From Candidatus Latescibacterota bacterium (GTDB lineage: Bacteria; Latescibacterota; UBA2968), in contig OZ242010.1 in assembly GCA_965204745.1 (NCBI GenBank), forward strand, positions 3,659,767-3,723,766: 64,000 bases of DNA, written 5' to 3'. The notes below the pieces were generated by a model, which was not told where the DNA came from, did not search any database, and was given only the letters and a program-made list of their open reading frames with translations. Below, piece after piece: positions 7,603 through 61,762 of the stretch; positions within the stretch are counted from its first letter, which is position 1, and each line of letters begins with the position of its first letter. The translations under genes and the position numbers were made by a program.

Positions 7603-7703
7603 TTCTGACGTAAAAGGCGATGAGATGGCACCTTGCGTCTTGCCTCTTGCCTCTCACCTCTTGCCTCTTGCCTCGTTCTGACGTAAAAGGCGATGAGATG
7701 GCA
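7603..7703. repeat. 28-bp direct repeats (tctgacgtaaaaggcgatgagatggcac) flanking a CCTCTTG/CCTCTCA heptamer insert
   Basis: Exact duplication at 7603-7630 and 7676-7703, with 45 bp of cttgcctcttgcctctcacctcttgcctcttgcc between them, directly upstream of the RBS of the 7726 gene. Confidence 0.6.
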
Positions 7704-7725
7704 CATTCACACAAAGGAGGGAACG

Positions 7726-8894: not shown

Positions 8895-10283
8895 TCAATA
8901 CCCCTTTGCCAGGTCCGCTCGGCTTTGGGCTTCGGCGGCTTCGGGGTCGCGTCTCAATTCTTTGGTCAAGAGGGCGTGTAGGTGTGCGATGCGCTCTGCC
9001 TGCGCGGGGTCCGCGGCGAGGTTGTCGAACTCCCCCGGATCAGCTGCGAGATGGTACAGTTCGCGTTCCGGGCCGTGGTCCGCGTCGAAGCGCGTGTGGT
9101 ACACGTATTTCCATGGCCCTTGCCGGATCATCGCCATGCCCGACGCGATGTTGTGACCGTAGTATTCGCTGATGGCAATGTCGCGCCAACCGCTGGTCTC
9201 GTCGTCCAAATAATTGAGCAGGGACGCGCCATCCCAATCGTCTGAGGATTCCGCGCCGCCGATCTCGGCGATAGTTCGCGCCAGATCGACCAGTGAACAC
9301 GTGCCTGCCCGTCGTTGTCCGCCGGCCCAGCGTTTTGGGTAGGATGCGATGAGGGGCATCCGCGCTGCGTGTTCGTACAGGTTGTTTTTCCACCACAAGC
9401 CGTGGTCGCCCTTGTTCTCGCCGTGGTCCGAGCAGTAAATGACGATGGTGTCGTCCGATACGGCTGATTCGCCGAGCGCGTCGAGCAACTTGCCGATCTC
9501 GTCGTCCAACCAGTTCACAAAGCCCCAGTAGAGTTCGCGGCCCAATTTCGTCTGCGCGGCCGTGGCCTTTGTCACCCCAAATCCGGCCCGCAGATGTTTG
9601 TAATTGGTCGGCAAGGTGTCCAAGAACCCGTCGGGGATCTCGGGCATGGGCACTTTGTCTTTGTAGGGCGCGTGATACGCCTCGGGGATGGTCAAGGGAA
9701 AGTGCGGCGCGAGGTAGCCAGCCAGCAAGAAGAAGGGTTTGTCATCGGCGTTGCGATTTCGCAAAAACGCGCTGCACTCCGCCGTTACTTTGCGATCTTT
9801 TTCCAGGATGGGCGACGTATCGCCGGTTTTGAACGCGGCTACCCGGCCTTCCCAACCGCGACTCGATTCCGACAGGTCGTCGTACGCCCGCCGCCCGCCC
9901 TTGCCGGATTTTTGCCCTTGGTTCGCGCCGGGATACACATCCCGAAAACCATAGCGGTGCGCGCTGGCAAAGTGCATTTTGCCGCCGAGCCAGCATTCGT
10001 AGCCGGCCGCGTTCAAGGCGTGGGGCAACGAGGGATACTCGTCTGTGGGCAGTTGGCAATCATTCGTCCACACCCCGCACCGGCTCACGTATTGCGCTGC
10101 TGTGAAACTCGCCCGCGCAGGCGCGCAAAGCGGCGAACTCGTGTACGCCGCGTCAAAGACGATGCCCCTTTCTGCCAACCCATCCAAATGCGGCGTTCGC
10201 ACAATGGGATCGCCATAACACCCCATCACCCCCGGGTCGTGTTCATCGGACATGATCATCAAAATATTCGGTCGGTCAGCCAT
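8895..10283 (-). CDS. Sulfatase family protein
   Basis: SPLCAPARASF (C-x-P/A-x-R). N-terminus MADRPNILMIMSDEHD without a signal peptide. AAGGAGA RBS before ATG 10283; the longer track ORF is rejected. Confidence 0.8.
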   Translation of the reverse strand: MADRPNILMIMSDEHDPGVMGCYGDPIVRTPHLDGLAERGIVFDAAYTSSPLCAPARASFTAAQYVSRCGVWTNDCQLPTDEYPSLPHALNAAGYECWLGGKMHFASAHRYGFRDVYPGANQGQKSGKGGRRAYDDLSESSRGWEGRVAAFKTGDTSPILEKDRKVTAECSAFLRNRNADDKPFFLLAGYLAPHFPLTIPEAYHAPYKDKVPMPEIPDGFLDTLPTNYKHLRAGFGVTKATAAQTKLGRELYWGFVNWLDDEIGKLLDALGESAVSDDTIVIYCSDHGENKGDHGLWWKNNLYEHAARMPLIASYPKRWAGGQRRAGTCSLVDLARTIAEIGGAESSDDWDGASLLNYLDDETSGWRDIAISEYYGHNIASGMAMIRQGPWKYVYHTRFDADHGPERELYHLAADPGEFDNLAADPAQAERIAHLHALLTKELRRDPEAAEAQSRADLAKGY

Positions 10284-10300: not shown

Positions 10301-10990
10301 TCAGCCGCGTCCATCCGCGGCGTCTGCGATGTAGGTCAAATAGGCGCTGTGCCCGTGCGATACGGGACATGAGATGGGCAAATGCCCGAGGTGTTTTTTG
10401 AGGGTTTTGAGGCGGCCTTTGACCGTGGTCACGCAAAGCGCGATATTTTTATCCCGATTTAAAAATGAAAAATCGTGCAAAAAAATATCCACCCGAGCGG
10501 CCAGTCGGGCCGCGATGAGCGCGTGCCCAATGCGGGTTGCTTCCGATTCAGAGGGCATGGGAATGACCAGGATATGGGGCGCGGATCGCAACGTAGGGGG
10601 AACCGAGATGCCGAGTTCGGTTTTGCCAGTGTTGCGTGCGTCGCAAATTTTTTGCACCACTGCATGGACCAAGAATATTGCGAGGCACAGGATCAGGCCC
10701 ATACCCACATGCTTCATCAACCCGCTGTAAAACGCGCTCTGTTGGGGATCCTCGGCGTGGAAGAACGCATTCTGAAAATGTTCGGGCGATTCCGCGACCA
10801 ATTTTCGGGCGATAACGCGCACTTGTGCGTTCGCCGCAGGGGGCAATGGCGAGACGCGCTCAAAGCCATACAGGGTGCGGATCATCTCTCTCGCGACGCG
10901 CAGGGCCTGTTCCTCCCGCGCAGGGGCCACGGCCCATGCGGTAGCGACCGCGCAAAACCCAACGAGTATGATGGTGCAGATTTTCAACAT
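10301..10990 (-). CDS. Hypothetical signal-peptide/membrane protein
   Basis: MLKICTIILVGFCAVATAWA signal-like N-terminus and an internal TM helix GMGLILCLAIFLVHAVV. No family recognised. The upstream part of the track ORF runs through repeat DNA. Confidence 0.35.
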   Translation of the reverse strand: MLKICTIILVGFCAVATAWAVAPAREEQALRVAREMIRTLYGFERVSPLPPAANAQVRVIARKLVAESPEHFQNAFFHAEDPQQSAFYSGLMKHVGMGLILCLAIFLVHAVVQKICDARNTGKTELGISVPPTLRSAPHILVIPMPSESEATRIGHALIAARLAARVDIFLHDFSFLNRDKNIALCVTTVKGRLKTLKKHLGHLPISCPVSHGHSAYLTYIADAADGRG

Positions 10991-11349
10991 TTTATCGGTC
11001 ACTCCGATCAACGGCCGAGCACGGGGGCATGGAAAAAAAAGGTGAGAGGTGAGAGGCAAGACGGGAGAAGACCTACACTCACTGCTCGCCTTTGGACTGG
11101 CTGTCGCTAGTTGTACCCCGCTCGTGGCTAAACTTGCCTCTTGCCTCTTGCCTCTTGCCTTTTTAGGCGAGCACGGGGCGTCGCCCCTACACATATCGCT
11201 CACCTTTGAACTGGCTATCGCCAGTTGTACCCCGCTCGTGCCTTTTGCGCCTTTTGTGGCTAATCGCCTTTTGTGGCTCACTTCAGGTTGGGTGGGCGGG
11301 TGTGGACTGACCACTGACTACTGACCACTGACTACTGCCTCTTCCCTTT

Positions 11350-14464
<3,115 letters not shown>

Positions 14465-14488
14465 GTCAGTAGTCAGTAGTCAGTAGTC

Positions 14489-14719
14489 AATGCGAATTAA
14501 GAGTAGAAAACGAGTAAGAAGCAAGCCGCGGCCAATCGCCCAAAGACCTCAACGAGTCATCCATTATAGAATCGCCCCTTAGAACTTGTCTGAAAACAAA
14601 CGATGCCCTCTCCTCCGGCTCCTCCCCGCAACGCAGAGACGTTATTCCCCCCTTCCTCGCAGGCACAGGCGTAGCCTACAACGAAGCGTAGCGAGTAACG
14701 GGGGTTAGGGGGGTAGGTC
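14489..14719. mobile_element. Truncated copy of MITE family B (TIR aatgcgaattaagag), next to a (CAGTAGT)x3 array
   Basis: Collinear with the reverse complement of 29781-30054 and with 18942-19269. Only the left TIR is present; the hairpin module A forms the right end. Confidence 0.5.
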
Positions 14720-14721
14720 AC

Positions 14722-15186
14722 TCATTTTTTTCGCTCGTAATATACCACCGTGAATTGATCGTGCGTCTCTTTTTGCGTTATGACCCATTCCCGTTCATCG
14801 AACTCGGGAAAGTATGCGTCGCCTTCGTACTCCGCGTGGATGTACGACAAAATCATGCGGTCGGCTTTTGGGAGGGTTGCGCGGTAGATTTCACCGCCCC
14901 CGCAGATGAATACCTCCCTGCCGTAAGACTCGGCTTTTTGGATCGCTTCTTTGAGGGACCGGCAAACGTCCACATCTTTTGCTTCGGGCATGGATCGGCT
15001 CACAATCACATGCGGGCGGCCCGGCAGGGGTTTGCTCCCGATAGATCGATAGGTCCTTCGCCCCATCAAAATAACGTGCCCGCTCGTCGTGCGCCGAAAG
15101 TGCTGCGACTCTGCCGATATATGCCAGGGCATTTTGTTGTCTTTCCCAATCACGCGGTTTTTGTCCATAGCTGCGATGATGGTCAT
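14722..15186 (-). CDS. folA: Dihydrofolate reductase
   Basis: MTIIAAMDKNRVIGKDNKMPW...ILMGRRTY typical of DHFR. Confidence 0.85.
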   Translation of the reverse strand: MTIIAAMDKNRVIGKDNKMPWHISAESQHFRRTTSGHVILMGRRTYRSIGSKPLPGRPHVIVSRSMPEAKDVDVCRSLKEAIQKAESYGREVFICGGGEIYRATLPKADRMILSYIHAEYEGDAYFPEFDEREWVITQKETHDQFTVVYYERKK

Positions 15187-15695: not shown

Positions 15696-17045
15696 TTATC
15701 CCGATCCGCCCTTCGCCTCTGCAATCTCGAGCAGGGCATTGGTTTTGACGACATGCCCGATCAAATCGTGCTCGGTGGCGTCGGTGATCTCGACGTCGAC
15801 GAAATCGCCGATTTGGGCGGGGCCGGTGAAGAACACGCCGCCGTCGATCTCGGGCGCGTCCATGCGCGTGCGGCCCACATAGTGATATGCCGGATCGTCC
15901 GACACCTCGTCCACCAACACCTTGAACGTGCGCCCAATGTGCGCGGCGTTCAAGTCGCCTGAGATGCACGCCTGCAATGCCATGATGTCGTTTAGCCGCT
16001 CGCGCTTGACTTCATCGGGCACGTCATCGGTCAAGTGACTCGCCCGCGTGCCATCCTCGTGCGAATAGGTGAACCCCACGAGGCGATTGAATTGCATTTC
16101 ATCGACAAAATCCATCAATTCCGCGACGTGTTCATCGCGCTCCCCCGGAAATCCCGCGATGATCGACGACCGAAGCGTCAAATTCGGGATGCGAGCGCGC
16201 AAGGCGTGGATCAACTTGCGGATGCCCGCTTGCGTGGTGCTGCGGTTCATCGCCTTCAAAATGGGGTCGGATGCGTGCTGAATGGGCAAGTCGATGTACC
16301 CGCACAATTTCTCTTCCCTCGCCAACAGGTCGATCAACTCATCGCGCCAACCCGTTGGATACGCGTACAGCAGGCGCACCCAATCGAGGCCATCGATCTC
16401 GACCAACGCCTTCAGCAAATCCGTCAATCGGGGCTTGCCGTACACATCCGCGCCATAGCGCATGGTATCCTGCGCGACGAGGGCGATTTCGCGCACCCCT
16501 TGTGCCACCAAGCGATGGGCTTCGGCCACCAAGCGATAGAGGTCTTCGCTCTCGTTCTGCCCGCGAAAACTGGGAATGGCGCAAAACGCACACGCCCGGT
16601 CGCAGCCATCCGAGATCCGCAAATACGCCCAGTGCTTCGGGGTGAGCAAGTGCCGGGACTCCGCGTCTCGAATCGTCTGAATGCGCGACGTGCCCAGCAA
16701 GTGATCGCAATGCGCCACGATGTCGCGCTCTCCCGCAAGGCCCACGATCATGTCCGCCTCCACGAGTTCGGCTTCCAATTCCGTGCGGTATCGCTCGGCC
16801 AAACAACCGGTGACGATCACCCCGCGGCACCTGCCCTCGTCCTTGTACTCGGCGGCGTCCATCACTGCGGCAATGGATTCTTCCTTAGCCGAGTCGATGA
16901 ACCCGCAGGTATTGACGACAATGACATCGGCGTCTTCGGCATCGTCCGACAGGTCGTACCCATTCAGCGCGAGGAGGCGGTGCATGCGCTCGGAATCCAC
17001 CGTGTTTTTCGGACAGCCCAGGGTGATGAGGTTAATCGTCGGCAT
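15696..17045 (-). CDS. rimO: Ribosomal protein S12 methylthiotransferase
   Basis: Radical-SAM CAFCAIP motif, an N-terminal MTTase domain (INLITLGCPKN) and a C-terminal TRAM domain. Confidence 0.85.
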   Translation of the reverse strand: MPTINLITLGCPKNTVDSERMHRLLALNGYDLSDDAEDADVIVVNTCGFIDSAKEESIAAVMDAAEYKDEGRCRGVIVTGCLAERYRTELEAELVEADMIVGLAGERDIVAHCDHLLGTSRIQTIRDAESRHLLTPKHWAYLRISDGCDRACAFCAIPSFRGQNESEDLYRLVAEAHRLVAQGVREIALVAQDTMRYGADVYGKPRLTDLLKALVEIDGLDWVRLLYAYPTGWRDELIDLLAREEKLCGYIDLPIQHASDPILKAMNRSTTQAGIRKLIHALRARIPNLTLRSSIIAGFPGERDEHVAELMDFVDEMQFNRLVGFTYSHEDGTRASHLTDDVPDEVKRERLNDIMALQACISGDLNAAHIGRTFKVLVDEVSDDPAYHYVGRTRMDAPEIDGGVFFTGPAQIGDFVDVEITDATEHDLIGHVVKTNALLEIAEAKGGSG

Positions 17046-17059
17046 AAAAACCACCTGTG

Positions 17060-17953
17060 TTATGCGGAAACGCCCAATTGCGAACCGGCGTGGACATGGA
17101 CTTCAATGCCCGCCTGCGCGTTGCGGATCAAATCCTCGTCAAAGACAATGCGCCCGGGTTCAAACAGGAGCACCAGCGTGGATCCACCGAATTGAAAATA
17201 GCCCTTTTCCGCGCCGCGTGCAACCCGGCCCGTGCGATATGTTTGGACGATGCGCCCCACGGCCCAGCCCGCGATTTCCATGATCATCACGCGGCCAAAG
17301 TCCGCGGTTTCGAGGTACGTAACCGCGCGCTTGTTGTGGGCGAACAAATCCGGTTTGACGTCGAGCAAGATGGGGTTGACGAGATAGTAGCGCCCGGCAA
17401 TTTCAGTCGGCGGCGTTGCGATGCCATCCACCGGAAAGTGAAAGCGATGATAATCTGCCGGCGCGAGTCGAATCACCAGCGCGGCGCCATTGCAATACGG
17501 CGTTGCCGCTGTTTGCGATGCCAAGAGCTGGGCGATATCCACATGCGCGCCTTTGACCGGCAACCGGGTTTGTTCGCAGAGCTCGGGATAGACCAGCGCC
17601 TTGCCATCCGCGGGCGAGCAGAAAACGCGCAGATCGGAGACAAAGGGGCGGGCGCCGGGTTTGAGTTTGCGCGCGAAAAACGCATTCAAATTTTTGTATC
17701 GCGCGATGGGCTGTTCGACTTCGTCGAGGTCGATGTCGTATTTCTCGACAAAGGCGGGGATTTTCTTCCGCGATCCCGCCCAATCCATCCCCTTGCCAAG
17801 CAACCAGCAAAACCAATGCGTGTTGAGGATCATATCGCCGATCCACATCGCCACGCGAGACCGCGCAAGGGCATCTTGCACTTTGGGCAAAATCAACGCC
17901 TCGGAAATCATCTCACCGGTCACACGGTCGCGGTAGATCACTTGCTCGGTCAT
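17060..17953 (-). CDS. psd: Phosphatidylserine decarboxylase
   Basis: FGGST pyruvoyl-forming cleavage motif near the C-terminus (FQFGGSTLVLLF). Confidence 0.85.
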   Translation of the reverse strand: MTEQVIYRDRVTGEMISEALILPKVQDALARSRVAMWIGDMILNTHWFCWLLGKGMDWAGSRKKIPAFVEKYDIDLDEVEQPIARYKNLNAFFARKLKPGARPFVSDLRVFCSPADGKALVYPELCEQTRLPVKGAHVDIAQLLASQTAATPYCNGAALVIRLAPADYHRFHFPVDGIATPPTEIAGRYYLVNPILLDVKPDLFAHNKRAVTYLETADFGRVMIMEIAGWAVGRIVQTYRTGRVARGAEKGYFQFGGSTLVLLFEPGRIVFDEDLIRNAQAGIEVHVHAGSQLGVSA

Positions 17954-17978
17954 GGGATGTCCTTATTCGGCCCCCTCC

Positions 17979-18629
17979 TCAAGACGGGGGGTAGATCACG
18001 GGCCAAAACGATTCTGGTTCGGCTTCAAATGTCATGCGTGTTTTTTTTGTCGGATGCGTCACGCGGATGGCTTGGGCGTGGAGGCCGATGGCGCGGTTGG
18101 GGAATGGCTTGCGCGATCCGTACTTGAAATCGCCCACTATCGGATGCCCGATATGCGCGAACTGCACGCGAATTTGATGATGGCGGCCCGTGGCGAGGTT
18201 CACGCGGATGCAGGAGATGCCATGGCGATAGGCCAACCGCTCAAACGAGAGTTCTGCGCGTTGTCCCGCGTGCGATACGATGCGGCTCTTGGTCTGTCGC
18301 CGCGCAATGTGATGCACCAGCCGCCCGGTCTTGACAACTTTGCCCTCCACCAGTGCTATGTAGTGTTTTTCCACGGTTCGCCTGCGGAACTGATCCGACA
18401 AGCGACGCGCGGCAACCGAGGTGCGCGCAAAAACCACCACGCCAGAGACGGGCCGATCCAAGCGATGGACCAAGCCGAGAAACACATTGCCGGGCTTGCC
18501 GAATGCGACCTTGAGATAGGCTTTGCCCATGTCGAGCAAATTTTCATCCGCCGTGTGATCGCCCTGGATGAGCAACCCAGCGGGTTTTCGCACGACCAGC
18601 AGATGATTGTCAAGGTAGAAAATGTCCAT
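17979..18629 (-). CDS. RluA-family pseudouridine synthase
   Basis: HRLDRPVSG catalytic Asp motif. Confidence 0.8.
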   Translation of the reverse strand: MDIFYLDNHLLVVRKPAGLLIQGDHTADENLLDMGKAYLKVAFGKPGNVFLGLVHRLDRPVSGVVVFARTSVAARRLSDQFRRRTVEKHYIALVEGKVVKTGRLVHHIARRQTKSRIVSHAGQRAELSFERLAYRHGISCIRVNLATGRHHQIRVQFAHIGHPIVGDFKYGSRKPFPNRAIGLHAQAIRVTHPTKKTRMTFEAEPESFWPVIYPPS

Positions 18630-18730: not shown

Positions 18731-18846
18731 ATGAAAGGCGTGAGACGTGAGACGTGAGACGTGAGATGAAAGGCGTGAGACGTGAGATGAAAGGCGTGAG
18801 ACGTGAGACGTGAGACGTGAAATGAAAGGCGTGAGACGTGAGATGA
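18731..18846. repeat. Tandem array of GTGAGAC heptamers interleaved with the 14-mer gtgagatgaaaggc
   Basis: gtgagacgtgagacgtgagacgtgagatgaaaggcgtgagacgtgagatgaaaggc... The minus-strand ORFs here (SRLTPFISRLT...) are translation artefacts of the repeat. Confidence 0.85.
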
Positions 18847-18941: not shown

Positions 18942-19269
18942 CGAATAAAGCGTTGCATCCATTTATTGGGACCTACCCCCCTGGCCCCCCTTCCTCACAG
19001 AAAGGGGGGAATGGCGAGAGGTTGTGCGAGGGGTTTGGGTTTCTAGGGCGTGATCTATTCGCTCAAAGCCATCAGAACAGCTAGGGAGACAAACCTTCAA
19101 AAAGCCATGCGCTCCCCCTTTCCTTGTAGGAAAGGGGGCCGGGGGGATAGGTCCTACGAGAAAGGGGAAGAACATCTCTCGTTGCGGAGATGCGCCGGAT
19201 GACTCGTCCATGTCTTTGGGCGATTGGTCTCGGCTTGCTTCCTACTCGCTTTCTACTCTTTATTCGCAT
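18942..19269. mobile_element. MITE family B copy (TIRs aatgcgaataaag / ctttattcgcatt), embedded between CTGACAA arrays
   Basis: Both TIRs are present. The interior holds hairpin modules (ccccccttcctcacagaaagggggg; cccctttccttgtaggaaaggggg) shared with 29781-30054. Confidence 0.55.
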
Positions 19270-19312: not shown

Positions 19313-20761
19313 ATGAAAAAACTCATCCTCCTCATCCTCCTCATCCTCCTCACCAGCGCGCCGCTTCGGGCTGATGAAGTCCAGCGCCAAACTGCTGTGA
19401 ACGCGATGGTGAAGGCCACGCGCTATTTTCGCACGCATGTCGCCACAAATGGCGGGTACTTGTGGCGGTACAAAACCGACTTCTCCCTGCGCGAGGGCGA
19501 AGGTACGGCGTCTGCCACTACGATTTGGGTGCAACCCCCCGGCACGCCTTCGGTGGGCATGGCCTTGCTCGCGGCGTATGAAGCCACGCGCGATACCCTG
19601 TTTCTCAATGGCGCGGTGGATGCGGCGCACGCGCTCGCTTGGGGGCAACTCGCGTCGGGCGGTTGGGATTATCGCATCGAGTTTGACGCGGGCCAAAGCA
19701 ACCGCTGGCACTATCGCCGGGATCTTGAGCGGGGCGATATACAGACAGATGACCGCCGCAATCGCACCACGTTAGACGACAACACCACGCAAAGCGCGTT
19801 GCAACTGCTGATGCGCGTCGACAAAACACTCGGGTTCGAGGATGCGAAAATCCACAGGGTCGTGCAATTTGGCCTCGACGCCCTGCTCAAAGCGCAGTAT
19901 CCAAATGGCGCGTGGCCGCAGCGGTTTGAAGCGTTTCCGGATCCGGAAAAGTTTCCAATCAAAAAAGCGCGTTACCCCAAAACCTGGCCGCGAACCCATC
20001 CGGATACGCGCTATGTGGATTATTACACGTTCAACGACAATGCGATTGCCGACGTGATTGAGACGATGATCGAAGCCCACGCGATTTACGGCGATGCGCG
20101 CTATTTGGACGCGGCCATACGCGGAGGTGATTTCATGTTGCTCGCGCAGATGCCCGCGCCACAACCCGCGTGGGCGCAACAGTACAATCTGGACATGGAG
20201 CCGACTTGGGCGCGGCGATTTGAACCGCCGGCCATCACCGGGTGCGAGAGTTTTGGGGTTATGCAAACGCTGTTGGACTTGTACATTCAAACTGGGATGC
20301 AACGCTTTCTCGATCCCATTCCCCCCGCGCTCGATTGGGCCAAACGCTCGCGCTTGGCCGATGGGCGCATAGCCCGTTTTTACGAACTCCAGACCAATCG
20401 CCCCCTGTATTTTACCCGCGATTACGCGCTCACGTACAGCGACGCGGACCTGCCCACGCATTACGCATTCAAGGTGGGTGGCAGCCGGCTCGAGCGGACC
20501 GAGAACTTGTACCAGCGCGTCAAAGCAGAAGGCAGGGAAACGCTATTGGCAGAACGCGGCCGCGTCTCGGCGCCAAGTGTCGAACAAGTACGACAAATCA
20601 TCGCCGCACTCGACGACCAAAACCGCTGGGTGGAACGCGGCTCCTTGCGAAATCCACACAATCGGCGGGAACGCATCGCCGCAGAAATTCTCTCGTGCCG
20701 CACGTTCAACCGCAATCTCGAAGTGCTGGCGCGCTATGTCAAAGGACGAACAGACGAATAG
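19313..20761 (+). CDS. Secreted (alpha/alpha)6-toroid protein, PL10-like pectate-lyase family candidate
   Basis: Signal peptide MKKLILLILLILLTSAPLRA. HVATNGGYLWRY... motif as in PelA/PL10-like proteins. The family assignment is from memory only. Confidence 0.45.
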   Translation: MKKLILLILLILLTSAPLRADEVQRQTAVNAMVKATRYFRTHVATNGGYLWRYKTDFSLREGEGTASATTIWVQPPGTPSVGMALLAAYEATRDTLFLNGAVDAAHALAWGQLASGGWDYRIEFDAGQSNRWHYRRDLERGDIQTDDRRNRTTLDDNTTQSALQLLMRVDKTLGFEDAKIHRVVQFGLDALLKAQYPNGAWPQRFEAFPDPEKFPIKKARYPKTWPRTHPDTRYVDYYTFNDNAIADVIETMIEAHAIYGDARYLDAAIRGGDFMLLAQMPAPQPAWAQQYNLDMEPTWARRFEPPAITGCESFGVMQTLLDLYIQTGMQRFLDPIPPALDWAKRSRLADGRIARFYELQTNRPLYFTRDYALTYSDADLPTHYAFKVGGSRLERTENLYQRVKAEGRETLLAERGRVSAPSVEQVRQIIAALDDQNRWVERGSLRNPHNRRERIAAEILSCRTFNRNLEVLARYVKGRTDE

Positions 20762-25746: not shown

Positions 25747-25793
25747 CGCGCGACTAGACGCCCCCCGCTGACCGCTTGGAGGCTTGGGATTAA

Positions 25794-25892
25794 CTGACAA
25801 CTGACAACTGACAACTGACAACTGACAACTGACAACTGACAACTGACAACTGACAACTGACAACTGACAACTGACAACTGACAACTGACAAC
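25794..25892. repeat. (CTGACAA)x14 perfect heptamer tandem array
   Basis: 99 bp of uninterrupted ctgacaa at the right edge of the methyltransferase islet, upstream of lgt. Confidence 0.95.
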
Positions 25893-25980
25893 TTGAGAGG
25901 AACAGCGCGGTGGCCTTCTCCCGTCTCCCCTCTTGCCTCTTGCCTCTCCCGTCTTCCCTCTACCCTCTTCCCTTCACCTC

Positions 25981-29780: not shown

Positions 29781-30054
29781 AATGCGAATTAAGAGTTGAA
29801 TCCATTGCGTACTTGTCTTTTTTTGGACCTACCCCCCTAACCCCCGTTACTCGCTACGCTTCGTTGTAGGCTACGCCTGTGCCTGCGAGGAAGGGGGGAA
29901 TAACATCTCTCCGTTGCGGGGATGAACCGGAGGAGGGAACATCGTTTTTTTTAGACAAGTTCTAAGGGGCGATCCTATAATGGATGAGTCGTTCATGTCT
30001 TTGGACGATTGGTTGCGGCTTGCTTCTTACTCGCTTTCTACTCTTAATTCGCAT
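29781..30054. mobile_element. MITE family B copy with intact TIRs aatgcgaattaagag / ctcttaattcgcatt
   Basis: Reverse-complement collinear with 14489-14719 and 18942-19269. Contains hairpin module A. Confidence 0.55.
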
Positions 30055-30134
30055 TGACCACTGACCGCTTGGGGTGCTGGGTAGCCCTCTTACGTCTTCC
30101 CTCTCCCGTCTCACTTGCGGAAGGGCGGTGCGGG

Positions 30135-30173
30135 GACTGACTACTGACTACTGACTACTGACTACTGACTACT
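30135..30173. repeat. (CTGACTA)x5 heptamer array
   Basis: gggactgactactgactactgactactgactactgactacttgg. Confidence 0.9.
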
Positions 30174-30403
30174 TGGGGTGCTAGGCGGTCCTCTTGTATC
30201 TTTGGGCGAGCACGGGGGCATCGCCCCTACATATATATCGCTCACCTTTGAACTGGCTATCGCCAGTTGTACACCGCTCGTGCCTTCTGTGCCTTTTGTG
30301 GCTAAAATCCCGTCTTCCCTCTCCCGTCTCACTTGCGGAAGGGCGGCGCGGGGACTGACAACTGACAACTGACAACTGACAACTGACAACTGACAACTGA
30401 CAA

Positions 30404-31581
30404 CGGCGTTGTTGCATAAATGTTGTCGTGGCTAAGTTCGTCCCTTTCCCGCGAAATTTAAGCCCTTCTTTCTATGGGATAGGACACGGGTTTCGCGATC
30501 CTCATCATGCGATTGAGCACCGCACATCCCAACCGTGCTTCCGTTTCTTGGTTCTTCTTTTTTCGTGCGCGCAACTGCCGCCCAATGAGTTGTTTGTAGC
30601 GGCCTATGTGGGTTTCAACGACCGAGCGACGATGATAGCCACTGGTGCGTTTCCACTGTCGGCGGCCTTGACGCCGGATGGCTCGGATGATTTCATCGCG
30701 GGCGAGGGGGGGTGCCTTCCTGTTTCCGTGTTGTTCAATTTTGGCATCATGGCGCGGGGGAATCAGAGGTCGGATGGGGGCTCCTTGTTTGGGGGCGGCG
30801 CATGTGTTGAAGACCTTGCGTTTGTCATAGCCGCCATCGGCGCCCAGCGTATGGACAGGGGCCGGGACTTGATCGAGCAAGGGGTTGACCTGCGAAGCGT
30901 CATCAACGCTTGCCGAGGTCAGGGTCTGTGCGACAATCTCCCCGGTGGCCTCATCGACGCCGATGTGCAATTTGCGCCAAGTCCGGCGCTTGCAAAAGCC
31001 GTGTTGACGCACCTTCCATTCGCCTTCGCCATACACTTTCAGGCCGGTAGAATCCACCACCAAGTGGATCGGCTCGTGACGGGATTGGACAGGTAAATCC
31101 ACGTTCAAATCGCCCTGTCGCCGGCAGAGGGTCGTGTGATCGGGCACACGCAAATCCACCCCCATCAATGCCAGGATGGACTTGAGAAACCCCTCGGTTT
31201 GACGCAGGGGCAAGGCATAGACCAAGCGCACCATCAATGCCGTTTGAATAGCCAAATCTGAAAAGGTGTTTTGCCGCCCCCGTTGCGTTGGCCCTTGATG
31301 GTACCAGTTCCGAAGGGCTTGCGGCGTGATCCAAAACGTCAGACTGCCCCGCTGCTTGAGACCGGCCTCGTAGGCCGCCCAGTTCCTAACCCGATAGACA
31401 GGCGCACAGCGCGGGCGACGCGGGGACTTGACGGCGGGTTTGGAAGCGGTTATCTTGGGCATGACAGGTTCCTGGTGAGAAAGGGTGAGTTGTTTTGGTG
31501 ATCTATATGCCCAATCTACGAAGGAGCCTGTCTTTTTGCAATCCCAACTTGCAGGAAATTGCTATTTATGCAACAACGCCA
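30404..31581 (-). mobile_element. Complete IS5-family insertion sequence (~1.18 kb), inserted in a (CTGACAA)n array
   Basis: Perfect 17-bp terminal IRs ggcgttgttgcataaat (30404-30420) and atttatgcaacaacgcc (31565-31581). (CTGACAA)x7 on both flanks; removing the IS plus one AC restores the heptamer phase, consistent with a 2-bp duplication. Confidence 0.8.
30458..31462 (-). CDS. IS5-family DDE transposase
   Basis: 334 aa, MPKITASKPAVKSPRRPRCAPVYRVRNWAAYEAGLKQRG... typical IS5-family N-terminus. Confidence 0.85.
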   Translation of the reverse strand: MPKITASKPAVKSPRRPRCAPVYRVRNWAAYEAGLKQRGSLTFWITPQALRNWYHQGPTQRGRQNTFSDLAIQTALMVRLVYALPLRQTEGFLKSILALMGVDLRVPDHTTLCRRQGDLNVDLPVQSRHEPIHLVVDSTGLKVYGEGEWKVRQHGFCKRRTWRKLHIGVDEATGEIVAQTLTSASVDDASQVNPLLDQVPAPVHTLGADGGYDKRKVFNTCAAPKQGAPIRPLIPPRHDAKIEQHGNRKAPPLARDEIIRAIRRQGRRQWKRTSGYHRRSVVETHIGRYKQLIGRQLRARKKKNQETEARLGCAVLNRMMRIAKPVSYPIERRA

Positions 31582-31650
31582 CTGACAACTGACAACTGAC
31601 AACTGACAACTGACAACTGACAACTGACAACTGACCACTGGAGCCTCTCT

Positions 31651-32643
31651 ATGCTACGCACCTGCGTCATCGGCCTCGGCCCAATCGGCAACCGGCACGC
31701 CGACATCTACGTCGAAAATGAACGCGCCGAACTCATCGGCGTGTGCGACATTGACGAAACCCGCGCCAATGCCGCCGCCGCCCGCTTGGGCATAACCGCA
31801 TTTTACAATGTTCAGAAAATGCTCGATGAATGCCGGCCCGATGTGGTCAGCGTGGCCACGGGCGGGTATGAATACAGCAGCGACCACTACGCGCCCACCA
31901 TGCAAGCCCTCGAGGCGGGTTGCCACGTCTTAGGCGAAAAGCCCATCTCCAACAGCATTGCCCACGGCGGAGAAATGGTCGCCAAAGCCAAAGAAATGGG
32001 CGTGTGTTATGGCATTGACCTCAACCACCGCTTTACCCCTGCGGCGCGCCTCGCCAAGAAGTGGGTGGACGAAGGCCGCTTGGGCCATCTGCTCTTTGTC
32101 AACATGGCGATGTGGATCATGAACCCGGCAGAGAGTTCGCCGTATTACCACCTCAAAGCCCTGCATCCGCACACGATTGACGTGATGCGCTATTTTTGCG
32201 GGGATGTGGAAGCGGTTCACTGTTTTGCCACCAAAGCGCCGGGGCGCGCGATCTGGTCGACCGCGCAGTTCAACATGCGGTTCACAAACGGCGTGGTCGG
32301 CTCGCTCACGGGCAGTTACGACATCGAGCGCGGCCATCCGATGGAACGTTGCGAAGTCGCAGGCACAGGCGGGCGGTTTGTCCTCGAAGACATGTGGCAC
32401 GAACTCACCTTGTACCCGGCGGGCGAGTTGGAAAAAACCGTGTACACGGACCCGGCATTTGGCGGGTTTGGCGATTTTATCGACACGTTCCGAGACCGCA
32501 TCGACACCTTTCTCCGCGAGGTCGGCGCCGGGGTCGCGCCCGAGGATATCGACGGCTCTGCCGAAGATGCCTTGGCCGCGCAAAAAGTCATTGCCGCAGC
32601 CATAGAATCGCTGGATGCGGAAACCGTTGTTTACGTGAAATAG
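31651..32643 (+). CDS. Gfo/Idh/MocA family oxidoreductase
   Basis: N-terminal Rossmann fold VIGLGPIGNRHA. EKP catalytic motif (HVLGEKP). Confidence 0.8.
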   Translation: MLRTCVIGLGPIGNRHADIYVENERAELIGVCDIDETRANAAAARLGITAFYNVQKMLDECRPDVVSVATGGYEYSSDHYAPTMQALEAGCHVLGEKPISNSIAHGGEMVAKAKEMGVCYGIDLNHRFTPAARLAKKWVDEGRLGHLLFVNMAMWIMNPAESSPYYHLKALHPHTIDVMRYFCGDVEAVHCFATKAPGRAIWSTAQFNMRFTNGVVGSLTGSYDIERGHPMERCEVAGTGGRFVLEDMWHELTLYPAGELEKTVYTDPAFGGFGDFIDTFRDRIDTFLREVGAGVAPEDIDGSAEDALAAQKVIAAAIESLDAETVVYVK

Positions 32644-41569: not shown

Positions 41570-41810
41570 AACTCCTCCAACCCCAAGTAGTCAGTAGTCA
41601 GTTGTCAGTCCCCGCACCGCCCTTCCGCAAGTGAGACGTGAGACGCAAGAGGGCCACCCGGCACCCCAAGTGGTCAGTGGTTAGCCCCCGCCCAACTCCT
41701 CCAACCCCAAGTAGTCAGTAGTCAGTAGTCAGTCCCCGCACCGCCCTTCCGCAAGTGAGACGTGAGACGCAAGACGGGAGAGGGCCACCCAGCACCCCAA
41801 GCACTCAGTG
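41570..41810. repeat. Tandem duplication of a ~120-bp composite unit ((CAGTAGT)n + ccccgcaccgcccttccgcaagtgagacgtgagacgcaaga...gagggccacc.agcaccccaag)
   Basis: Two adjacent copies, a third at 42600-42730, and reverse-orientation copies at 30062-30135 and 30311-30354. Confidence 0.7.
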
Positions 41811-42565: not shown

Positions 42566-42858
42566 AAGACACGACAAGGAGTGCGAATGGGCAAACCCTG
42601 CCCAACCGCTGCGCCCAAGTAGTCAGTAGTCAGTGGTCAGTGGTCAGTGGTCAGTCCCCGCACCGCCCTTCCGCAAGTGAGACGTGAGACGCAAGACAGG
42701 AGAGGCCCGCCCAGCACCCCAAGCGGTCAGCGGTCAGTGGTCAGCCCACCCCGCCGCCCTGTCTCATTAGTCGTAGGGAGTTGCCTCTCAAGGCCGTTCA
42801 ACGGTCAGTTGTCACCCCGTTCTCTTTCATCTTTCAACCGATCTCTTTGGAGTCCATC

Positions 42859-56057: not shown

Positions 56058-56385
56058 AACCCTCCCTCGATGCGATGGGTTGACAAGAATAAGACGGGGG
56101 TTATATTGTGCTGTGCAAGCGCGGAGAGCGCATCTCTCTGGCGCGTGCGCGCGGATGATCGGCGATGGCCAGGCAAGTCAGAACCGATCATCCTTTTTTT
56201 GTCAGTTGGGCTTTATTGTTTTACTAATAAAACAACCGCCCAAAGAATAAAACAGATGTTAAAACTTGTCAACAATTTTTTGCAATCATCGCCGTTCATC
56301 CCTGCTTACCACGCAGAGACATGCCTGTGGTTGCTTTTTTCGCTTTTCAAAACGCTTGAATTTTCAGCCTAAGCGCGTATTTTAG

Positions 56386-56504
56386 CAAGAGGCAAGAGGC
56401 AAGAGGCAAGAGGCAAGAGGCAAGAGGCAAGAGGCAAGAGGCAAGAGGCAAGAGGCAAGAGGCAAGAGGCAAGAGGCAAGAGGCAAGAGGCAAGAGGCAA
56501 GAGG
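56386..56504. repeat. (CAAGAGG)x17 heptamer array abutting the RBS of the downstream oxidoreductase gene
   Basis: The array ends ...caagaggCAAGGAGatcgacATG; the last unit grades into the AAGGAG Shine-Dalgarno of the 56518 gene. Confidence 0.95.
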
Positions 56505-56517
56505 CAAGGAGATCGAC

Positions 56518-57495
56518 ATGTCGAATGGATTAAAGGTCGCGGTGATCGGGGCGAGTGGCATTGGGCAACACCACGCGCGATGGCATCACTTGTCCGGGTC
56601 TCAAGTGGTGGCATTTGCAGGCACGTCGAAAGAAACGTGTGCGAAAACCCGATCCCTGTTGCAGGCGGACTTTGGCTTTGATGGCCGTGCGTACACGGAC
56701 GTGGCGCGCATGCTCAAAGCCGAACAACCCGACGTGGTCGATGTGTCTAGCCCGCCGCATTTGCACAAAGACCACGCGATTTTGGCATTGCAAAGCGGAT
56801 GCCATGTGGTGTGTGAAAAACCCCTGTGTTGGGACGAGGACAAGGGCTTGGACGCGATTTTGGACGATGGACGCGCCGTGGTGGATGCGGCGAAACAGGC
56901 GGGCAAATCCCTGGCGATGTCTGCCCAATATGCCGCGGCGATCCCGATGTATCGCCAACTCTACACGCGGGCGAGAGGCGCGTGGGATCGCGTTGACTCG
57001 GTCGAGATGGTCATGGAATCGAAGGGGCGCAGGGGGCCGAAAGCGCGAGAAGAGATCTGGATCGATCTCGCTTCCCATCCCTTGAGCTTGGTCTTTGGCT
57101 TTTTGCCCGATGGGGAAATCGACTGGTCGAGCGCGGCGTGTGAGATTGGCGAGCGGGAAAATCGCGCACGATTTGACGTGCTCACGCCCAAAGGCCGATG
57201 CGCCGTGCAATTCGCGTTGCGCGACAGGGACGAGGGCGTCCCCATCCGACAATTCGGCGTCAATGGCTTTTTGGTCAACTGGGAGGGCTTTGCCGACGAG
57301 GAGGGGATTTATCGCGCACGCCTCTCAGCCGATGGCGAGACCGCGACTTGCCCGGATTTTATGCACATTTTCATCGGCGAATTTGCCGAGCACATCCGCG
57401 GCACAGGCGGGCAGGTCATCGTTTCCGGCGCGGACGCCCTGAAGAATTTGCAGGCTCAAATCGCGCTGCTCAAGCGCGCGGACAGGCGGGTGTGA
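56518..57495 (+). CDS. Gfo/Idh/MocA family oxidoreductase
   Basis: VAVIGASGIGQHHA Rossmann fold. VVCEKP. Confidence 0.8.
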   Translation: MSNGLKVAVIGASGIGQHHARWHHLSGSQVVAFAGTSKETCAKTRSLLQADFGFDGRAYTDVARMLKAEQPDVVDVSSPPHLHKDHAILALQSGCHVVCEKPLCWDEDKGLDAILDDGRAVVDAAKQAGKSLAMSAQYAAAIPMYRQLYTRARGAWDRVDSVEMVMESKGRRGPKAREEIWIDLASHPLSLVFGFLPDGEIDWSSAACEIGERENRARFDVLTPKGRCAVQFALRDRDEGVPIRQFGVNGFLVNWEGFADEEGIYRARLSADGETATCPDFMHIFIGEFAEHIRGTGGQVIVSGADALKNLQAQIALLKRADRRV

Positions 57496-57499
57496 TCCC

Positions 57500-58804
57500 A
57501 TGAAAGAGGTCTTGTTTATCGCCTATCACTATCCCCCTATCGCATCTGGTACGGCCCGGGTAAAGGGGTTTGTCCAGCACTTACCCGAGTTGGGATATCG
57601 CCCGCACATCTTGACGACGGCAACCTACGGACAGACATCTGACCCTCGGGTGTACCGCGCGCGTGAATTGCTCGGTTTGTACCGGTTTTTGTTTCATCGA
57701 AAACAGCGCGGCGCAATCCCCATTCAGCGGTCTTTTGAGCGCACGCAGATGCGCGGCATTCGCAACTTGGCGCGCCAGTGCAAGCGATTTCTATTCATTC
57801 CCGACGGGCAAATCGGATGGCTACCACACGCGCTTGGGATGGGGTTGCGACTCATCCGCCGGCACCGCATCGAGGTTTTGTATTCCACTGCGCCCCCTTT
57901 TTCGGCTCACCTGTTGGGCCTGATGCTCAAGCGACTGACGGGAATACCCTGGGTTGCAGACTTTAGGGATACCTGGACCTATGACCCGCTTGACGAGGCA
58001 TTGCTGGCTCTGCCCACGCGCCTGCAAATTGAACGCTGGCTAGAGTGCGCGGTTTTGCACCGGGCAAACAGGGCGATTGCCGTTACAGATGTAGCTTTTG
58101 AAGATTTTGCCCATCGCTATCCCGCACTGCGCGACCGGTTGCTGTTCATTCCAAATGGGTTCAATCCCGAGGACGTACCCAAACCCATTCCCTGCCCCGC
58201 AGAGCGTGCGCGGCTGCGTTTGGTCTATACGGGGTCCTTTTCTCACAGCCATGTTGCCCGATCTCCCGAGCCTTTTTTTGAGGGCGTCAAACGGTTTGCG
58301 AAGCGGTGTCCACACGAGGCGCGCAAGTTGGAAATCGTGATTGTGGGCGCGCTCAGCCCTTCTGAACGACGATGCGCTGCGGAATTGGCTCAGGTCGTGA
58401 AATTGGTGGGACCCGTTTCTCGGCAAACGGCCATCGGATGGCAACAGCGTGCCGATGTGTTGTTGTTGTCGGATCATGTGCATGCGGTACCGGCCTCAAA
58501 TATCCCGGGAAAGTGTTATGAATATCTGGCCGCTCAAAAGCCCATTTTCGCGCTCGTTCCCGAAGGCGCGACTCGGCGGTTGATCGAGAAATTGCGAGCG
58601 GGTATTTGCGTTTTGCCAGATGATGTCAATGCAATAGAGAGGGGTTTGAAAAAATTGCTGATGGCGCGACAAAATGGCGCGTTAGATACTTGGCGCGTAT
58701 CTCGGGCACAACTGAAATGCTTTCACGCTCGCACGACCGCCGCGCAACTCACTCGATGTTTTGATCGAATCACTTCTGACTGCCCTTCGCGCCTCCCGCC
58801 TTGA
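57500..58804 (+). CDS. Glycosyltransferase family 4 (GT-B) protein
   Basis: GT4-type C-terminal domain with the E-x7-E region (KCYEYLAAQKPIFA). Confidence 0.65.
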   Translation: MKEVLFIAYHYPPIASGTARVKGFVQHLPELGYRPHILTTATYGQTSDPRVYRARELLGLYRFLFHRKQRGAIPIQRSFERTQMRGIRNLARQCKRFLFIPDGQIGWLPHALGMGLRLIRRHRIEVLYSTAPPFSAHLLGLMLKRLTGIPWVADFRDTWTYDPLDEALLALPTRLQIERWLECAVLHRANRAIAVTDVAFEDFAHRYPALRDRLLFIPNGFNPEDVPKPIPCPAERARLRLVYTGSFSHSHVARSPEPFFEGVKRFAKRCPHEARKLEIVIVGALSPSERRCAAELAQVVKLVGPVSRQTAIGWQQRADVLLLSDHVHAVPASNIPGKCYEYLAAQKPIFALVPEGATRRLIEKLRAGICVLPDDVNAIERGLKKLLMARQNGALDTWRVSRAQLKCFHARTTAAQLTRCFDRITSDCPSRLPP

Positions 58805-61471: not shown

Positions 61472-61762
61472 TGACTACTGACTAGGTTCTGTTGACATTT
61501 ACGAGCAAAGCAACTGGCTTGAGCGGTTTTGCGAGGGGGACCTACCCCCTAACCCCCTTCCTAAGAGGAAGGGGGAACGGTGATGGGTCTTCCGAGGGAT
61601 TGCTCGAGAGGTTTTTTGGGTTCTATGGCGTGATCCATTCGCCCAAAGCCATCAAAGGAGCTTTACTCCCCTTTCCTCGTAGGAAAGGGGCCGGGGGATA
61701 GGTCCCCTCGCGCTTTGCTAATCTGTGCGTAACGTGAAAAAAATGAAATGTCAACACAACCT
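61472..61762. mobile_element. MITE family A copy (~290 bp, internally deleted, reverse orientation), flanked by CTGACTA arrays
   Basis: TIR ctaggttctgttgacattt (61472-61490) and aaatgtcaacacaacctac (61744-61762). Interior shares hairpin modules with 20781-21242. Confidence 0.5.

Follow-up and report, generated by a model that had tools for sequence, protein, structure and literature searches.

A strain-variable heptanucleotide array in the inferred 5′ leader of an oxidoreductase-glycosyltransferase gene pair of a Latescibacterota bacterium

Results

The CAAGAGG array and the genes that it adjoins

The 64,000-nucleotide stretch analyzed here (hereafter, the window; contig OZ242010.1 of assembly GCA_965204745.1, from a Candidatus Latescibacterota bacterium) carries 17 tandem CAAGAGG heptamers immediately ahead of a gene for a Gfo/Idh/MocA-family oxidoreductase, which is followed by a GT4-family glycosyltransferase gene. 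A regular-expression search located an exact and perfect 119-bp array at 56386-56504 of the plus strand, and Tandem Repeats Finder (TRF) run on the window returned 56385-56508 with a period of 7, 17.7 copies, 100% matches, and a score of 248; such an array cannot arise by chance. On its 3′ side follows CAAGGAGATCGACATG, with the Shine-Dalgarno (SD) sequence AAGGAG at 56506-56511 and the ATG at 56518. The original prediction, made from the letters of this stretch, that 17 units run directly into the SD sequence of a Gfo/Idh/MocA gene was therefore borne out by TRF, by the regular expression, and by the match of the protein to PF01408 (E = 5e-22). Orthologs of the 56518 protein were found throughout Latescibacterota metagenome-assembled genomes (MAGs), many of which are closed long-read chromosomes, and all relatives came from Candidatus Latescibacterota. 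The oxidoreductase-GT4 gene pair is kept in the related loci L033-L037, and the two genes are probably cotranscribed. An SD core is present in 40 of 59 genes (68%) versus 14% of the background, indicating that the organism uses SD motifs.

An assembly artifact was ruled out, as the same array recurred at the same site in assemblies made independently from other samples, with long reads and with short reads. Separately, the short-read contigs L036, L038, L041, L044, L045, and L047 were seen to start or stop inside heptamer arrays, whose unit counts are lower bounds in such contigs. Translated read-through of the array, which would give the repeated peptide QEARGKR, was also excluded because an in-frame TAG (56383-56385) lies ahead of it and the unit holds no ATG, GTG, or TTG, the first start being that at 56518.

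Position of the array relative to a conserved promoter-like box

A promoter-like box upstream of the array (Table 1) matched the sigma-70 consensus at 8 of 12 positions and was not flagged by a simple promoter scan. The sequence GTTGAATTTT-N-TATT(T/A)T is kept across orthologous loci of 75-92% protein identity while the flanks diverge, and in array-free orthologs the box stands only ~20-45 nt from the ATG. We infer that TTGAAT-N16-TATTTT is the promoter of the 56518 gene. The array starts 3 nt past the -10-like hexamer TATTTT, neither between -35 and -10 nor in a reading frame, so that the predicted transcription start site lies within unit 1 and all 17 units would belong to the 5′ leader. Promoter-spacer phase variation was ruled out, the array being downstream of the -10-like box. 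Because the array lies outside the open reading frame (ORF) and outside -35/-10, the classical on/off mechanisms (frameshift and promoter spacing) are inapplicable, and only leader length and context change with unit number. A slippage-prone tract between the likely promoter and the ribosome-binding site, as originally proposed, is supported by the array's place between conserved box and SD. The headline of that proposal, a candidate contingency (phase-variable) locus, fared less well: the classical mechanisms are unavailable at this position, and a binary switch is mechanistically unlikely. An independent heptamer repeat, (ACTTTGC)x3, was observed in the -35 region of the orthologous gene's promoter in more distant species (L006, L011, L015, and L017; ~9920-9950).

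Unit number and a hairpin arm differ among strains

Conspecific loci were found via members of the same 90% protein cluster, and their flanking DNA was 98-99% identical to the window at the nucleotide level. The promoter box and CAAGGAGATCGACATG were common to all conspecific alleles, and at this one site CAAGAGG was counted 2, 9, 17, or 42 times; in two further alleles the count was at least 7 and at least 12, and all differences were whole 7-bp units (Table 1). As in the hypermutable simple sequence repeats (SSRs) of contingency loci, unit number thus differs among closely related strains. The anticipated change in 7-bp steps is real, and the opposite outcome, no copy-number variation among strains, did not hold when orthologous loci were compared.

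In L033, L034, L035, and L038, the array was followed by GATGGCC-TTCTCACGTCTTGCCTCTCACCTCTCACC-TTTTTT-GTTCGCCCGAAGAGA, and in L034 and L033 ~57 bp (GATGGCCTTCTCACGTCTTGCCTCTCACCTCTCACCTTTTTTGTTCGCCCGAAGAGA) separated it from CAAGGAG. The pyrimidine tract after the array is a degenerate inverted copy of the repeat. This arm and the last ~4 array units were predicted to pair in a hairpin with a folding energy of -38.6 kcal/mol (z = -5.35) and with U6 after it, which looks like an intrinsic terminator, and the hairpin was predicted alike at 2, at least 7, 9, and 42 copies. The leaders of the window and L036 lacked the hairpin and were essentially unstructured in folding. A pairing arm of the type known from the Haemophilus influenzae hmw genes is accordingly present in the four alleles named above and lost from that of the window. 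The array touches the SD in the window because the ~57-bp hairpin arm has been deleted, and the fused junctions of the window and L036 are explained by deletion between AAGAG/CAAG microhomologies. The earlier description of the last unit merging into the SD is therefore true of the window sequence, but the merger is strain specific and a product of arm deletion, the arm being kept in four alleles.

A fuller copy of the module was found elsewhere in the window, at 10990-11164 (Table 1). Its core is related to the L037 insert, and the purine array and pyrimidine arm act as inverted ends of a repeated element. The 10990-11164 module looks like an ordinary terminator-type extragenic element.

No array was present at the orthologous gene in the sister species L001 (91% protein identity), L002 and L004 (both 89%), and L003 (92%). 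L002 and L004 are syntenic with the window and share much of the intergenic sequence, array-free; L003 reads ...GCGCGTATTTTATTTCGGTATAAGGAGGTCGATATG at the orthologous site and carries TATAAGGAGGTCGATATG, indicating that the SD is older than the array. Derivation of the array from the SD sequence was likewise ruled out: the SD is present in array-free relatives, and two-copy or variant proto-arrays stand at the left end of the inserted element (L035 and L037). More distant Latescibacterota (~75% identity) had 0-1 heptamer arrays per 21 kb; thus, the heptamer burst is lineage specific. A scan of Joint Genome Institute (JGI) metagenomes with the SD-ATG junction CAAGGAGATCGACATGTCGAATGG gave no match, the species being represented mainly in ENA/Logan assemblies. 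The unit itself is widespread beyond Latescibacterota, since (CAAGAGG) arrays of at least 4 units were present in >120 environmental JGI contigs with a GC content of 0.34-0.70. Eighty of these loci (L050-L129) were used only for the unit's spread, their ORF context being unreliable because the purine strand lacks stops. The JGI contigs include some from a Hot Lake Oscillatoria-type consortium, and copy numbers reach 20 or more.

Heptamer arrays across the window

The array belongs to a population of intergenic 7-bp arrays in the genome. In the window (57% GC), period 7 accounted for 20 exact runs of at least 2.5 copies, totaling 705 bp, versus 0-2 runs each for period 6 and periods 8-12, and conspecific loci had a similar period-7 excess. 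When placed on a gene map from our own codon-usage model trained on long ORFs, which designated 83% of the window as coding, 22 of 22 approximate period-7 arrays were intergenic (P ~1e-17). Two unit superfamilies and their complements cover nearly all arrays: ACTGACN (ACTGACA, ACTGACT, and ACTGACC; ACTGACA, equal to CAACTGA, is the commonest unit in the window) and the purine-rich NGNRAGA (GGCAAGA, which is the focal unit, CGTGAGA, and GGTGAGA, with CGGGAGA in a relative). Six of the 22 arrays ended within 21 nt of a start codon (2755+, 14464-, 19313+, 25981+, 31651+, and 56518+; binomial P = 0.03, from a small sample and our own gene calls), and the start-abutting ACTGACN arrays were in forward orientation in 4/4 cases, again a small sample. 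The adjoining genes were diverse (LGT, class-III aminotransferase, pectate lyase, PhyH-like, DNA methylase, and Gfo/Idh/MocA) and not restricted to surface or host-interaction functions. The focal locus, singled out by the original prediction, is therefore not special: all arrays are intergenic beside diverse genes, and the other arrays checked were equally variable. A second heptamer insert that it had placed between 28-bp direct repeats right before the ribosome-binding site of the 7726 gene is real, but the repeats are 29 bp long, and the tract, the reverse complement of the focal unit family, lies 50 nt ahead of the ATG.

Heptamer tracts were also nested in higher-order direct repeats, namely, the 29-bp repeat around the 7632 tract and a 56-bp period of ATGAAAGG plus CGTGAGA units (18731-18846). 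In L001 (12435-12645), a 70-bp period triplicates the start of a glycosyltransferase gene. Such repeats around tracts could come from unequal exchange between arrays or from insertion with long target duplication. A tandem composite module, (AGTAGTC/AGTGGTC)n-AGTCCCCGCACCGCCCTTCCGCAA-GTGAGACGTGAGACGCAAGA-GGGCCACCC.GCACCCCAAG-(TGGTCAG)n, and its reverse complement were observed at 41585-41776, 42617-42745, 30085-30175, and 30310-30407, so that ACTGACN arrays lie between conserved G-rich sequences and not in random DNA.

Variation, rearrangement, and mobile elements at other arrays

Conspecific loci were further compared over 21.6-42.6 kb and 0-18.7 kb of the window. The array at 25790 held 14.6 copies in the window, ~19 in L039, and ~2.5 in L040. 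Those at 30352 and 30134 measured 56 and 42 bp in the window versus 38 and 28 bp in conspecific loci, and that at 31578 had 9 units in the window and 3-6 elsewhere, with differing unit mixes. Between flank anchors, the 7631 tract spanned 48 bp in the window and L049 and 27 bp in L048, with the direct repeats in all three. Arrays of up to 4 units were often unchanged between strains. The frequent constancy of short arrays and the whole-unit differences between strains are what replication slippage predicts.

The array upstream of the Gfo/Idh/MocA gene at 31651 was kept in 10 of 10 conspecific alleles (window and L039-L047; 3-9 units), while the DNA on its left was of three unrelated kinds, including the 3′ end of pdxA; in L042-L045, the array nearly fills the 24-31-nt spacer after pdxA. 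Because left flanks differ while the array stays, arrays coincide with rearrangement junctions.

Mobile elements were found at arrays as well. An IS5-like insertion sequence (IS) element (PF13737/PF01609, DDE_Tnp_1) at 30405-31580, with an ORF at 30458-31462 of the minus strand and terminal inverted repeats GGCGTTGTTGCATAAAT, occupies exactly the interval between two ACTGACA arrays. IS5-like copies occur at other ACTGACA arrays in relatives, e.g., at the 14463-array site in L049 and not in the window. An IS5-like remnant was seen at 826-1246. Within an ACTGACT array lies a 277-bp element (61485-61760) resembling a miniature inverted-repeat transposable element (MITE), with inverted ends GGTTCTGTTGACATTT / AAATGTCAACACAACC and internal G/C-rich palindromes; this site is empty in L033 (14950-14985), which carries an inverted copy elsewhere (19564-19802). 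MITE-related gggacctacccccc... sequences were noted at ~2600-2690, 14640-14730, 18960-19000, and 29830-29900. Five IS110-family copies (DEDD_Tnp_IS110 plus Transposase_20; L039:1953-3230, L049:1-1070 and 13536-14843, and L001:11031-12390 and ~16930-18215) shared identical junctions, ...CCTCTTG|TATCTT... on one side and GAGAGTATCT(TG)|CCTCTTGCC or TCTCCCG on the other, at sites equivalent to ~25940 and ~11131-11164 of the window. The junction tracts are the pyrimidine strand of the focal unit family, the L039 copy sitting in a CCTCTTG tract, which suggests that IS110-family elements may target the CAAGAGG/CGGGAGA array family sequence specifically. IS and MITE elements insert preferentially in heptamer arrays.

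Table 1. Features of the window and alleles of the focal site in conspecific loci
Feature	Position	Strand	Remarks
Candidate small RNA unit	56080-56206	+	Separate upstream unit, not part of the repeat; strong, near-consensus sigma-70-like promoter TTGACA-16-TATATT (56080-56107), ~90-nt two-hairpin RNA, T7 terminator
Promoter-like box	56356-56383	+	TTGAAT 56356-56361, 16-nt spacer, TATTTT 56378-56383; conservation among orthologs
CAAGGAG and 6-nt spacer ATCGAC	56505-56517	+	SD; also the junction left by hairpin-arm deletion
Gfo/Idh/MocA-family oxidoreductase gene	56518-57495	+	325 aa; PF01408 GFO_IDH_MocA, E = 5e-22
GT4-family glycosyltransferase gene	57500-58804	+	PF13439, PF13579, PF13692; 4 nt after the oxidoreductase gene
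Tract between direct repeats	7603-7704	+	TTCTGACGTAAAAGGCGATGAGATGGCAC 7603-7631, 44-bp degenerate CTTGCCT/CTCACCT tract 7632-7675, direct repeat 7676-7704; before ATG 7726
Fuller module	10990-11164	-	(GGCAAGA)x4, ~65-nt core, arm TCTTCTCCCGTCTTGCCTCTCACCTCTCACC, T8; between two codirectional genes
Array before the LGT gene	25790-25973	+	(AACTGAC)x14.6, spacer, pyrimidine heptamer tract up to ATG 25981
Paired arrays	30352-31641	+	(ACTGACA)n at 30354-30404 and 31581-31635 around the IS5-like element; right array 9 nt before ATG 31651
Allele, window			17 copies; arm and T-run deleted; array fused to SD
Allele, L033			42 copies; pyrimidine arm and T-run present
Allele, L034			9 copies; pyrimidine arm and T-run present
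Allele, L035			2 copies; pyrimidine arm and T-run present; extra TTTTTGGTCTTAAG between -10 and array
Allele, L036			At least 12 copies; arm and T-run deleted; one TAAGAGG variant; intermediate junction ...GGCAAGAGACAAGGAG
Allele, L037			0 copies; arm absent; ~150-bp MITE-like insert whose right end GTTCGCCCGAAGAGA is shared with the arm alleles
Allele, L038			At least 7 copies; pyrimidine arm and T-run present; contig begins within array

The unit at 56080-56206, a candidate small RNA, is conserved across 10 Latescibacterota loci and shows two compensatory pairs. It was assigned to no Rfam family; its best match had an E value of 0.35. No Rfam family reached the gathering threshold anywhere in the window, and the intergenic region gave only that chance-level match.

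Discussion

Our preferred explanation, to which we give a probability of about 0.6, is that the array represents a heptanucleotide microsatellite of recent origin and rapid evolution, located in the leader that is transcribed with the Gfo/Idh/MocA-GT4 operon. A small hairpin module, consisting of purine heptamers, a loop or core, pyrimidine heptamers, and a T-run, would have inserted between the -10 box and the SD in an ancestor of this species, and the array would be its expanded purine-rich arm. Replication slippage would then have changed unit number between strains, and in the window allele a deletion at the AAGAG/CAAG microhomology took the arm and the T-run, leaving the array fused to the older SD. 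Arm-bearing alleles would carry a terminator-like hairpin in the leader, and the fused ones a long, unstructured, purine-rich leader, which in the window presents 17 weak SD-like GAGG motifs. Copy number could tune leader length, like known SSR rheostats in 5′ untranslated regions (5′-UTRs). Any effect on expression is most likely quantitative and not a binary switch, and only in a graded form is phase variation plausible. The most expression-relevant polymorphism is probably the presence or absence of the terminator-like hairpin, which is not reversible; that a long fused array acts as a 30S standby or decoy region is speculative.

Several points weigh against this explanation. The promoter assignment is founded on conservation, at 8 of 12 consensus positions. 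The copy numbers of L036 and L038 are lower bounds, as short-read contigs break within arrays, and consensus assemblies of metagenomes mask heterogeneity within a population, behind which a true high-frequency switch could lie. The module with inverted heptamer ends was reconstructed from a handful of copies, and the terminator-like hairpin may be no more than incidental to the inserted element. Pairing to the anti-SD (-5.8 kcal/mol for CAAGAGG, -11.6 for the true SD, and -0.7 for ACTGACA) was computed with a canonical 16S anti-SD assumed for the host, not read from it.

In a classical contingency locus, slippage would reversibly switch the operon on and off and yield surface-glycan heterogeneity, e.g., for phage evasion. 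Glycosyltransferase and sugar-type oxidoreductase genes are often phase variable in pathogens; the operon holds one of each class, and the copy-number spread among conspecific strains is large. Nevertheless, we regard such a locus as improbable here, since the array lies outside the ORF and outside -35/-10, where 7-bp steps have no obvious binary effect, similar arrays stand ahead of housekeeping and unrelated genes, the array is missing from sister species, and the largest difference between alleles is an irreversible arm deletion, not a unit change. The claim of a phase-variable contingency gene should not be propagated without expression or read-level evidence. A posttranscriptional rheostat of the hmw type under selection deserves somewhat more credit, although it is doubtful. 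The repeats and the right arm would form a 5′-UTR hairpin that is processed (e.g., by RNase III) or terminates transcription, expression would scale with copies, and the window would be a derepressed variant. The architecture matches that of H. influenzae hmw1A (PMC12721329), and in four alleles the hairpin, with a U-run after it, is predicted whatever the copy number. However, only ~4 units pair with the arm, so that extra copies leave the hairpin unchanged; two alleles without the arm and one with a different insert argue against strong constraint; and the same module elsewhere is an ordinary intergenic terminator-like element.

Start-codon arrays might alternatively be leader repeats that bind S1, Csp, or CsrA-like proteins or recruit the 30S subunit, together forming a translational regulon, as modeled on the TAACTGA repeats. 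The six arrays ending near start codons (P = 0.03) point that way, as do the forward orientation of all four start-abutting ACTGACN arrays, whose CAACTGA unit is one base from TAACTGA and has the same placement (PMC4679880), the persistence of the 31651-gene array in 10/10 alleles despite three left flanks, and the weak SD core within CAAGAGG. Most arrays, however, lie away from start codons, some of them convergent or 3′ and in either orientation, copy number ranges freely from 2 to 42, close relatives lack the focal array, and the sample is one 64-kb window; we consider this model no better founded than the contingency locus. Also unlikely, if marginally less so, is that the arrays are a functional genome-architecture system and not passive microsatellites, serving as sequence-addressed landing pads for IS5-like elements and those of the IS110 family (bridge-RNA-type), as junctions at which recombination exchanges upstream regions between genes, and as transcribed leader or terminator hairpins that set the expression of adjacent genes. 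If that were true, array expansion, arm deletion, and IS capture would amount to fast, locus-by-locus rewiring of expression at hundreds of genes.

These data extend the heptanucleotide-repeat phenomenon, which had been described in cyanobacteria, Beggiatoaceae, some Bacteroidetes, Xanthomonas, and Burkholderia, to an uncultured phylum of the Fibrobacteres-Chlorobi-Bacteroidetes (FCB) group. They also provide a natural allelic series at one site (0, 2, 9, 17, and 42 copies, with or without the arm) from several near-identical closed MAGs, which suits the question of tuning versus neutrality. Furthermore, arrays break short-read assemblies and, because they coincide with points of rearrangement and IS insertion, influence synteny and the quality of MAGs.

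Comparison with known systems

The nearest architectural analog is found in H. influenzae, where a G-rich right arm base-pairs with ten (ATCTTTC)n repeats of the hmw1A 5′-UTR, the hairpin is processed by RNase III, and expression falls as copies rise (PMC12721329). Like hmw1A/hmw2A (PMC12721329; PMC8262952), the focal locus has a 7-bp SSR between the likely promoter and the start codon, predicted to lie in the leader, isolate-variable copies, and a glycosyltransferase in the operon, and in its arm-bearing alleles the repeats are predicted to pair as left arm with a nonrepeat right arm, making a long hairpin. For hmw, RNase III processing and the inverse dose-response were demonstrated experimentally and a minimum repeat number is maintained, whereas the focal leader is predicted from sequence. 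Unlike hmw, only ~4 units pair here, a terminator-like U-run follows the arm, the arm is deleted in the window allele, and the array is one of many in the genome and not a dedicated locus. A tandem repeat between promoter and start codon with strain-dependent copies is likewise found at Moraxella catarrhalis uspA2, where, as summarized in PMC4679880, (AGAT)n in the 5′-UTR varies from 6 to 23 copies by strain and tunes expression instead of switching it (Attia and Hansen 2006). According to that summary, the uspA2 repeat is a tetranucleotide at a single dedicated virulence locus of a host-adapted pathogen, verified experimentally, in contrast to the sequence-based focal array.

TAACTGA repeats of marine Beggiatoaceae, Cyanobacteria, and Bacteroidetes are intergenic, often lie in forward orientation just before start codons, reach 43 copies, and have no known function (MacGregor 2015, PMC4679880). 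The arrays described here resemble them as abundant intergenic heptamers in tens of copies, some of them near start codons, and with no functional pattern among downstream genes, and the window's CAACTGA (ACTGACA) is one base off TAACTGA. They differ in phylum, in the coexistence of several unit families, including the NGNRAGA family of the focal array, and in that copy-number change between strains, rearrangement junctions, and IS targeting were directly seen. Cyanobacterial short tandemly repeated repetitive (STRR) heptamers represent a similar excess of 7-nt tandem repeats. Long SSRs (LSSRs) of bacteria show a heptanucleotide bias (Mrazek et al. 2007, summarized in PMC4679880). As far as that summary goes, LSSR/STRR share with our arrays that 7-nt repeats are in excess throughout the genome in certain lineages, lie mostly in noncoding DNA, and are attributed to polymerase slippage, whereas the surveys it covers did not include this phylum or tie arrays to hairpin modules or IS insertion.

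The GGGNATC heptamers of Xanthomonas and Nostoc form G-quadruplexes through G3-4 tracts, prefer four units, and, like the present arrays, are spread over the genome, overrepresented in noncoding DNA, and variable in unit number, being located near ORF ends and transcribed (PMC4692102); Nostoc heptamer repeats also occur near start codons (bioRxiv 10.1101/2022.06.06.494920). Unlike these GGGNATC repeats, CAAGAGG has only GG tracts and no preferred copy number. G-quadruplex or H-DNA roles were considered for CAAGAGG, which besides its GG tracts has one pyrimidine per unit. Repetitive extragenic palindromes (REP) and bacterial interspersed mosaic elements (BIME) are short, hairpin-forming, terminator-like extragenic repeats and specific targets of IS110/IS1111-family elements. 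In contrast to such single palindromes, the IS targets here are tandem heptamer tracts. Within the literature library searched, no paper tied such heptamer repeats to Latescibacterota. The focal array is thus a hypermutable heptamer microsatellite of a known kind, LSSR/TAACTGA-like in its repeats and hmw-like in its 5′-UTR architecture, in a phylum that is new for such repeats.

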